Shown: positions 6,001-9,000 of the stretch, one piece after another | How the letters are laid out: every line of letters begins with the position of its first letter | Numbering within the stretch: position 1 is the stretch's first letter | From: a virus | Lineage: Duplodnaviria; Heunggongvirae; Uroviricota; Caudoviricetes | IMG/VR virus record: IMGVR_UViG_2563366897_000006 | Length of the DNA: 45,081 nucleotides | Direction: 5' to 3' (one strand) | Program-made: the position numbers

Positions 6001-9000
6001 CTGTTTATCATCCAGGGTTGCCTGTGGTAGCCGTAACGGTACATTCACCAGCCCCTGTCGCTGCTGAAGTAATTCATTACCGAGCCCGAGAAGGCGATTA
6101 AACTCGGTATGCTGCCCATTCATGATCAACAGGGACTGATACGCTTTGTTTTGTTCCGCTGCCTGTTGACGGATCAACGCCACCCGTCGCTCCTCCAGCC
6201 CGGCAAGCACATCCTGAATGGATTGCGCTTTGCCCTGCATTTGAGTGAGGCGAGACTGTTCAACTGCCAGTTGATTTGTTGCTTCTGCAAGCCCTTCTGT
6301 GACAGTTTTTACCGACGTCATGTGGTTAATCATAAAACCGTTATCGGTTGTCCAGCCCGGGTTTGCCAGCACATACTGATAGCCAGCAATTTTTTCCTGT
6401 AAGGATTTAATCTTACTTTTCTGCTCGTCAATTAACCTGTTTTGCTCCTTCAGTGCCTGTCGCGTCTTTTCCTCATTATCTGACGCTTCAGGAAGCGACA
6501 TTGCCGACGTTTTCTGGCGTATTAGACGTCAACTAGTTTTGCCGACTCGCGCCAACTATACTGGCCGCCCCCTTCAGTGCGACATCAAGTCGCGCTTGTT
6601 ACTGCCTTCGCTGTCTTTTTCCTGTAGCTTTCACCTTTCAGTTCGAACATATATCCGTGATGGATCAGCCGGTCTGCCGCCGCCACCGCCATAGTCTCAT
6701 CCACGAAGATGCTGCCCCACATGCTGAACGGATGGTTACTGGTTATCACCAGGCTCCCACGTTCATAGCGATGCGCTATTAACTCGAACAGTACTCCCGT
6801 TTCGGCGCTGTCGCGTTTGACATAGCCAAGATCATCCACCACTATCACCCGGTAGCGATCCAGTTTCAGTAGCAGCTCATTCAGTTTCAACTGCGCTCTG
6901 GCTTTACGTAGTTCCTGCAACAACTCTCCTGCGCTGTAGAACCGGGCCCGGTAGCCCTGGCCTACTACGCCATCCACGATCGCTGCCGCCAGATGGCTTT
7001 TCCCCAACCCGCTGGCTCCGAACAGCAGAACGTTTTCTCCTGCATCAACCCAGTCTGTCGTTTCACAGAGTTGCCGGAACTGAGCTCCATTCAGTTCCGG
7101 CACCTGACTGAAGTCGTATTCGCTTAGCGTTTTGGCAACTGGCAACCGGGCCTCCTTTTTATAACGACGCAGTTTTTCACTCTCGCGCCACAGGAGTTCT
7201 TCATTGCATAGCGTCAGAAGATAGCGCGATGGTGTCCAGCCTTCTGCCAGTGCTCGTTTTTCCAGAGCGTGCCATTCAGCTCCAACTCGTGTCAGGCGTA
7301 GTTTACGCAGGCTGCGTTCAAGGTGATGGATATTGCTCACTGCGAACCTCCCTTGCCACGCAGTAGTTGCTCATAACTGCTCAGGTTATGCTGTTTCACA
7401 TTGACTACCGGCAACGCCTTTTCCTTTATACCCAGGAAGCGCATCAGCCGGTGCAGATCCACGTTTCCCGGGGTATTCAGCATCTGCTCCATACCTTTTG
7501 CCACGACTGAGATATCGTCGTATCCTGCAGCCAGTTTCAGAGCATGTACCATCAGCCTGCCTGCCATGTCGGGTTCCAGATGATTACATAAGCGACGCCA
7601 CAGCCTCCGCCATTCATCGTCTGGCAGGATGTCATTTCTCAGCGTTGCATGGCAGAACGCACCGGGCTTTTTTGCCAGACTGTCGATCACATGTCGGAAG
7701 TCGATACGACGGGCCCGCGTCTTCCCTTTTTCTGGTCTGACACGTGGGCAGCTCATGACCTCGCTGCTGCCAACGTAACAGCTCAGACGATCGTCCCATA
7801 ACCGGACCCGTAACAGTTGACCTACAAGCCGGGAAGGTACGCTGTAGACGACGTGCTTCACATTGATGGTACTGCTGCGGCTAACCCTCACAGTCAGCTC
7901 ATCATAGTCAGCACTGCGACGAAGCGGCAGCGGTTTCAGATGAAGACGTTCTTCCTTGACCAGATCCTGATTGTTACGGTTGTGCCGCATAACCTGCTGA
8001 GTGATGAAGGCCTGATATTCTTCTATGGTGCTGAAGTCGTTACTGCCCCGCAGTATCAGCGCCTGACAGATACGCCTTTTCAGATGTCCGTGGGCACTTT
8101 CAACCGAGCCATTTTCGTGGCCCCGACCGGCATTATTGTGTACGCCCTGCATTCCGTAGTGCTGACAGAGAGCAGCATAACGCTCAGTCAGCTCGCGGCG
8201 TCCATCTTCGCCCTGTTGTTTCCATGCTGCCCTCAGGCTGTCCGTTTTATGTTCTACCGGCACTCCGCCCAGTTGTCCGAGGGCTTCCTGCAGACCTTCA
8301 GCCAGAGCAGAGAAGCTCTCACCACCCAGCACAACCCGCATCCAGCTCCAGTGGCTCCATTCCAGACGGAAGTGATACAACTTATGCGCCAACAACTTAC
8401 CGGCGATGGTGACAACTACACCTTTCAGTTCAGTAAAGTCCGACAGACCTCGCAGACCGGGCTGATGTCGCTGGCGGAACATGACCTCCTGCTCTGCACC
8501 ATACTGTAGCTTCCATTCGCGGACCCGCCGTTGCATTGTTCTTCGAAGGCTGTTGGGGTACTGGCCGGGATATTTATCCTGTAGCATCTCCAGCAGAGTT
8601 GTTGGTGTCAGAGCCGGCCTCTCTTTCAACAGAGGAACAAGCATGCTGTCCCACACAGCTTCCAGAGGATCTTTGCGTGTGCGCCAGTGCCGAACACTGT
8701 TTTTTGCCCACTCTCCTTTTTCGATCCGACGACCAGAACGGACTGAGATACCAGCCTTCATGGCCGAGATATGCTGAGTTATACCTTTCTTACGCTGAGT
8801 CATATAGTAACTGACCTGAGAAGTATTGAGCGTCACGCCATTTCCTGTTGGATCATGTAAATGACACTCAGGTTACAAAACCGGCCAGAATAATCGGCGC
8901 CAGGCGGACTGAGTTATTGTCGTCTCATACTGGCGAATTTCGTCGATTGTTGCGGCATACTGGCGTGCAGATTCTCTGGCCTGCTCCTGATTCTGATACA

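Follow-up and report, generated by a model that had tools for sequence, protein, structure and literature searches.

The 45,081-nucleotide (nt) stretch of Caudoviricetes DNA deposited as IMG/VR record IMGVR_UViG_2563366897_000006, referred to here in its full length as the window, carries a lambda/HK97-like siphovirus prophage that is integrated beside a DUF72 gene in Escherichia coli. We conclude, with a probability of about 0.93, that a complete copy of ISEc10, an insertion sequence (IS) of the IS21 family, has inserted into the tape measure gene of this prophage, an event that should block tail assembly. The element lies at 6520–8929 on the minus strand, in the same orientation as the gene that it divides. 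An earlier, sequence-only reading of the window had described such an insertion, and that observation is confirmed as correct in every checkable detail.

ISEc10 and its target site

The limits of the element are marked by a direct repeat, CTGGCG, which was read by inspection of the sequence at 6514–6519 on the istB side and at 8930–8935 on the istA side. The intervening 2,410 bp represent the only ISEc10 copy in the window. By chance alone, the hexamers at two given positions would agree with a probability of 1/4096. The tips of the element, TATTAGACGTCAA at 6520–6532 and TTGTCGTCTCATA at 8917–8929, are complementary at 11 of 13 positions, exactly where the sequence-only reading had placed them, and the imperfect terminal inverted repeat of which they form the outer part reaches about 48–49 nt with 71% complementarity (6520–6567 at the istB end, 8882–8929 at the istA end; pair I1).

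Two consecutive genes on the minus strand fill the element and overlap by 4 nt (GTGA). The first, istA (8836 to 7337), encodes a 499-amino-acid (aa) transposase identical to WP_000174402.1, and the second, istB (7340 to 6585), encodes a 251-aa AAA+ helper ATPase identical to WP_000065240.1; the NCBI Prokaryotic Genome Annotation Pipeline (PGAP) annotates both at the same coordinates in other copies of the element. IstA scores 227 bits over residues 12–304 against the NCBIfam equivalog model NF033546, 'IS21 family transposase' (cut-off 160 bits), and Pfam recognizes only Mu-transpos_C_2 in it. IstB scores 266.7 bits against NF038214, 'IS21-like element helper ATPase IstB' (cut-off 200 bits), and 209 bits against the Pfam family PF01695 (IstB_IS21), and it displays a Walker A motif, GASGLGKS, and a Walker B motif, VVDDLG. 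The full 2,410 bp is 100% identical to copies residing in many E. coli chromosomes and plasmids, which PGAP labels 'IS21-like element ISEc10 family', and a match to ISEc10 is found in 899 of 5,426 RefSeq complete E. coli genomes. The assignment of istA and istB to an IS21-family element, proposed from the sequence alone, thus stands; the element is ISEc10, and it shows all testable features of the family.

Compared with the copy in strain CFT073, the window copy is identical at 2,409 of 2,410 nt, encodes identical IstA and IstB proteins, has the same termini and is likewise flanked by a 6-bp duplication. The one difference is a non-coding substitution at 6569, C in the window and A in CFT073, and it is also the only difference that separates the window copy from the eight sampled copies described below, CFT073 included. 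The C allele is shared by the window with the copies in E. coli JNEC-KY173 and AREA_492. The CFT073 element was named ISEc10, and de novo insertions of it near lpp have been described in that strain under selection (PMC7482066).

The prototype of the family is IS21 from plasmid R68.45. ISEc10 resembles it in its co-oriented and overlapping istA and istB genes, its long imperfect inverted repeats, its short target duplication and its overall size of about 2–2.5 kb. The two are nevertheless different members of the family. Many IS21-family ends are described as having the form 5'-TG...CA-3', whereas the ISEc10 termini read 5'-TA...TA-3' in nine of nine copies. Target duplications in the family range from 4 to 8 bp.

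To define the limits of the element independently of the window, eight ISEc10 copies from unrelated contexts were compared, each with 100 nt of flanking sequence. The contexts of these copies are genes for a Tn3 transposase, flhC, a TrlF ATPase, another transposase, a DUF4942 protein, a DUF932 protein and a hypothetical protein, and a CFT073 island. All eight begin with TATTAGACGTCA and finish with TGTCGTCTCATA, at identical positions, and each is flanked by a different duplication: GGAGCC, ACCAGG, AATCCC, GGCACC, (C)ACTCAG, GGCTGG, GAAGAC and GATCAG, one of which, (C)ACTCAG, is lengthened to 7 bp by a chance extra base. Because eight copies share the same termini and each has its own 6-bp duplication, the limits and the duplication length are properties of the element and not a coincidence. 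The ends at 6520 and 8929 and the duplicated CTGGCG, as first read from the window, therefore agree with the independent copies, and they agree with the empty site as well.

Two other views of the ends were considered and set aside. Matches to the junctions overran the IS ends by 5–17 nt, which suggested that the ends might differ or that the element might prefer particular targets; the eight copies with fixed ends and unrelated duplications exclude this, and the overruns arise because the hits were sorted by coverage. Within the target, at a distance of 30 nt from the insertion point, the segment 8946–8965 (ATTGTTGCGGCATACTGGCG) matches 8916–8935, i.e., the right end of the IS plus the duplication, at 16 of 20 positions. 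When the nine reconstructed targets were scanned for 14-mers resembling the IS end, the window target reached 10 of 14, a value attained by 17% of shuffled sequences, and the preference for look-alike targets was rejected; the resemblance is probably due to chance.

The 30-nt left end of ISEc10 was found as an exact match in only one of 185,579 species-representative genomes, at 1116–1145 of NZ_JARFXX010000032.1. The contig, which bears the label Neopoerus faecalis, is only 1,162 nt long and has the match at its end; contamination or genuine transfer may account for it.

The divided tape measure gene and its predicted loss of function

The gene is recognizable as two parts on the minus strand, on either side of the element. 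The 5' part (8873–10303) is an open reading frame (ORF) of 476 aa that runs from 10303 to 8873: its first 458 residues (10303–8930) are genuine tape measure sequence ending in ...ATIDEIRQ, where Q is residue 458, and they are followed by 18 IS-encoded codons, YETTITQSAWRRLFWPVL, and a stop codon within the IS. It contains TMP_3 and positions 1–63 of the PF06120 profile. The 3' part (4642–6513) begins with KTSA and continues into a 619-aa ORF, listed from an internal ATG at 6501 to 4642, that contains PF06120 profile positions 67–292 and Tape_meas_lam_C. The two copies of the hexamer fit this frame: the copy at 8930–8935 corresponds to codons R457-Q458, and the copy at 6519–6514, read on the minus strand, also gives R-Q in frame with the C-terminal part and continues as KTSA-MSLPEASDNEEK.

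Removal of 6520–8935, that is, of the element and one CTGGCG copy, produces a single ORF of 1,081 codons with no internal stops, as the sequence-only reading had predicted when it described the two halves as one long frame. PGAP places the start at a GTG at 10297, two codons in, hence a length of 1,079 rather than 1,081 aa. PF06120, which the insertion breaks between profile positions 63 and 67, becomes a single hit to positions 1–292 with 313 bits in the rebuilt protein, whose domains are TMP_3 (85–274), Phage_HK97_TLTM (397–688, profile 1–292) and Tape_meas_lam_C (863–934). Aligned with intact homologues, the rebuilt protein is identical at 1069 of 1079 positions to that of JNEC-KY173 and at 1043 of 1075 to that of MS8345, and in both alignments the junction is free of any gap or duplication. 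The rebuilt protein thus shares all three domains with lambda gpH/HK97-type tape measure proteins such as that of phage PhiR49_2. The position of the gene is the same too, between the G/T chaperone pair and M-L-K-I-J in the order tube–G–T–tape measure–M–L–K–I–J; in the window alone of these two it is split by an IS.

The empty site was sought with an 800-nt query in which 6120–6519 was joined to 8936–9335. This rebuilt junction was recovered in one piece, at 100% identity across all 800 nt, from at least 21 E. coli genomes; in each of these it falls within a gene annotated 'phage tail tape measure protein' and holds one CTGGCG only. It also matches the deposited phages PhiR49_2 and vB_EcoS-611R1 at 99.9% identity. 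The closest relative of the whole prophage is that of E. coli JNEC-KY173, which is 99.97% identical over window positions 1–6523 and 99.76% over 10379–45081; it occupies the same chromosomal neighborhood, lacks the IS and retains an intact tape measure gene of 3,240 nt. The gene is also intact at 3,240 nt in PhiR49_2 (PV340570.1), whose structural module is 98.9–99.85% identical to that of the window. A literature search found no paper on PhiR49_2, and its infectivity rests on the deposit only.

Taken as a mechanism, these data indicate that a complete, transposition-competent ISEc10, supplying both the IstA DDE transposase and the IstB AAA+ helper, entered codons 457–458 of a gene of about 1,080 codons by ordinary cut and strand-transfer transposition, duplicating its 6-bp target CTGGCG. 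The predicted products are a 458-aa N-terminal piece extended by 18 IS-encoded residues and a C-terminal piece of about 623 codons that would lack a ribosome-binding site of its own. A tape measure protein works as a single extended chain: its C-terminal part joins the tail-tip initiator and the tube polymerizes along the chain, as in lambda gpH and HK97. The length of the chain sets the length of the tail, and lambda mutants defective in H make no tails. Since a complete, single-chain tape measure protein is required for tails, we infer, on sound grounds, that this prophage would be unable to build them. On induction, the prophage alone would be expected to replicate, fill heads and lyse its host without releasing any infectious particles with tails. 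Transcription probably still passes through the IS into M-L-K-I-J, because the element is co-oriented with these genes, its sense strand holds no convincing terminator and the late operon is Q-antiterminated; at the IS ends, no outward promoter or terminator of note was found. With a ratio of 0.15 nm of tail length per residue (PMC9928086), a tail of about 160 nm would be expected from the intact protein of 1,079 aa.

Three points weigh against this interpretation. One paper gives the size of an ISEc10 insertion as 2,530 bp (PMC8764528), in contrast to 2,410 bp here; all nine copies examined measure 2,410 bp. That the prophage is otherwise complete is shown only for the contents of the window, and its left end falls beyond them. 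Finally, it is possible that a co-resident lambdoid prophage complements the defect or repairs it by recombination, given that the junction search found up to 7 related tape measure places per E. coli genome.

The last point belongs to a broader alternative, in which the insertion is silent for virions: the two pieces would work in trans, the C-terminal piece would yield short tails, or a co-resident prophage would supply the protein. Lambdoid heads and tails do assemble independently, several related tape measure genes in one genome are common, and the other tail genes are intact and co-oriented with an IS that contains no convincing terminator on the sense strand. However, neither a promoter-like site nor a Shine-Dalgarno-like sequence was found ahead of the internal ATG at 6501, and the Pfam search detected no lambda-type C-terminal domain in the N-terminal piece. 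Lambda genetics, in which the loss of H leaves mutants tail-less and tail length tracks a single H chain, likewise argues against split function, and the data give no sign of rescue in trans. We therefore consider silence of the insertion quite improbable. A more elaborate version, in which the split gene is not dead, appears far-fetched: after induction, transcripts reading through the co-oriented IS would enable the C-terminal piece (about 620 aa), alone or together with the other, to build short-tailed or altered particles, or infrequent precise excision would make the insertion a reversible virion switch kept for years by the carrier lineage. Under the interpretation of a tail-assembly block, the prophage could still be rescued if the element were, on rare occasions, excised precisely across the 6-bp repeat.

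Carriers of the insertion and mosaic flanks

Neither of the two junctions between the IS and the tape measure gene was found in the 5,426 RefSeq complete E. coli genomes, so that this site is not among the ISEc10 sites of that collection. The insertion had on this basis been considered private to the window; that view was dropped when an exact look-up of the chimeric N-terminal protein matched 29 contigs. Written with the ATG start, the chimeric protein was found on one ENA metagenome scaffold with an identical junction; with the PGAP GTG start, it was found on the 29 contigs, all distinct from the window, and is listed in 56 index blocks. The carriers include E. coli KTE isolates (ELD09797.1 and others), GCA_958304265.1 and GCA_964049875.1, and a chromosome-scale contig of the last is 100% identical to window positions 1–20297. 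The 619-aa C-terminal fragment occurs on 26 contigs and is deposited, for example, as ELD09794.1. The insertion is thus real, is carried by a group of E. coli isolates, and has stood in public databases for a long time under two separate 'tape measure' names. We infer that the IS copy is of intragenomic origin, which fits the presence of the same rare 6569 C allele in the nearest relative, JNEC-KY173.

The flanks of the element differ in their affinities. Against JNEC-KY173, the window shows one mismatch in 3001–6519 and 114 differing positions in 9016–12284, in addition to a replaced spacer; against PhiR49_2, it shows 43 mismatches in 3014–5899 and 7 in 8963–12631. The prophage is therefore mosaic, JNEC-KY173-like on the left and PhiR49_2-like on the right, and the divergence from JNEC-KY173 begins at 9016, only 81 nt from the IS. 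Such a pattern could be produced if homologous recombination between two ISEc10 copies had brought together flanks from different prophages. Recombination of this kind, however, would leave unlike hexamers on the two sides, whereas here they are identical, and the same two flanks are contiguous, at 100% identity, in the at least 21 genomes that carry the 800-nt empty site. Moreover, the three compared prophages are near-identical over about 700 nt (5900–9015 without the IS), so the breakpoint may lie anywhere in this shared stretch and need not touch the element. Recombination between IS copies is accordingly a very improbable source of this arrangement, and a coincidence of the mosaic breakpoint with the IS site was rejected, with no evidence of a link between them.

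An assembly artefact, with the IS misplaced by a mis-joining of repeat-bounded contigs, can practically be discounted. Assemblies typically break or mis-join at IS copies, and several carrier contigs do stop just inside the element, but both junctions show a clean 6-bp duplication and removal of the insert restores the ancestral sequence exactly. The same junction also recurs on the metagenome scaffold and on the 29 contigs, which come from independent assemblies and some of which, at 5.19 and 5.24 Mb, run through the element from end to end.

The remaining prophage and the reading of the gene in annotation

The sequence-only reading had described the head, lysis and replication modules as intact, and for what the window holds this is borne out. 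When the 60 coding sequences annotated in the JNEC-KY173 region, comprising the prophage and an adjacent element, were searched against the window, 58 were found at full length, with 89–100% aa identity and without stops, J being followed only to the window edge. The full-length set includes the early and lysis genes (integrase, excisionase, repressor, Rha proteins, replication genes, Q, holin, lysozyme and Rz), the structural genes (terminase, portal, protease, capsid, connectors, tail tube, G, T, M, L, K and I) and the genes of the adjacent serine-recombinase element. Only two coding sequences fall outside it: the tape measure gene, which is split, and an accessory gene for a 113-aa zinc-ribbon protein, which is absent. 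The rest of J, Lom, the side tail fibre and the left attachment site lie outside the window; GCA_964049875.1 has J annotated over its entire length of 1,232 aa.

Upstream of the tape measure gene, the chaperone pair occupies 10344–11032 on the minus strand. G ends in ...GGTTAAAAAAAAGTAG, with an A-run slippery site just before its stop codon; a conserved −1 frameshift yields the G-T fusion in such phages, and the A-run is the slippery site expected for it. The spacer that separates T from the tape measure gene (about 10304–10380, minus strand) contains a terminator-like hairpin, CCGCTTCGGCGG, followed by T8. In JNEC-KY173, a T/tape measure spacer of about 44 nt is replaced by about 445 nt carrying the zinc-ribbon gene, which points to a moron-type insertion/deletion polymorphism.

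A tRNA cluster at 22437–22686, downstream of the gene for the Q antiterminator, comprises Arg-tct, Arg-tcg and a tRNA with a CAT anticodon, called Met by ARAGORN and Ile by PGAP. The cluster adjoins a truncated DNA methyltransferase gene, and its three tRNAs are common to MS8345, JNEC-KY173 and PhiR49_2. In the early-left region (33369–35049), the JNEC-KY173 annotation identifies a ParE family toxin-like protein (33369–33584) and an SPFH domain protein (34222–35046), both 100% conserved between the window and JNEC-KY173.

Two elements flank a remnant of the DUF72 gene of about 430 bp (37482–37928; positions 22–138 of the 217-position PF01904 profile). The tyrosine integrase of the lambdoid prophage (36187–37500) borders it on one side; on the other, a large serine recombinase (37979–39502) heads a second phage-like element with a Dit-like protein (39517–40311), a 682-aa TMP_3 protein (40448–42496) and hypothetical genes up to the end of the window. 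The two elements are thus arranged in tandem at one DUF72 gene, and JNEC-KY173 shows the same arrangement.

As to the insertion itself, the IS is known, and so is this kind of event. IS-interrupted prophage genes that leave non-inducible or defective prophages are commonly reported, and the present case is the same in kind, differing only in the IS, the gene and the lineage. In Lactobacillus crispatus M247, for instance, 10 genes are interrupted by an IS, and 3 of them belong to a prophage or integrative element (PMC10763512). The case adds nothing new on transposition or phage assembly, and its value is mainly for annotation. The junction, which none of the 5,426 RefSeq complete genomes contains but about 29 other contigs do, provides a convenient lineage marker. 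The two ORFs deposited as separate 'tape measure protein' entries (ELD09797.1 and ELD09794.1) should be read as one IS-disrupted pseudogene, and the prophage, complete as it looks to gene-content tools, should be scored as defective in tail assembly.

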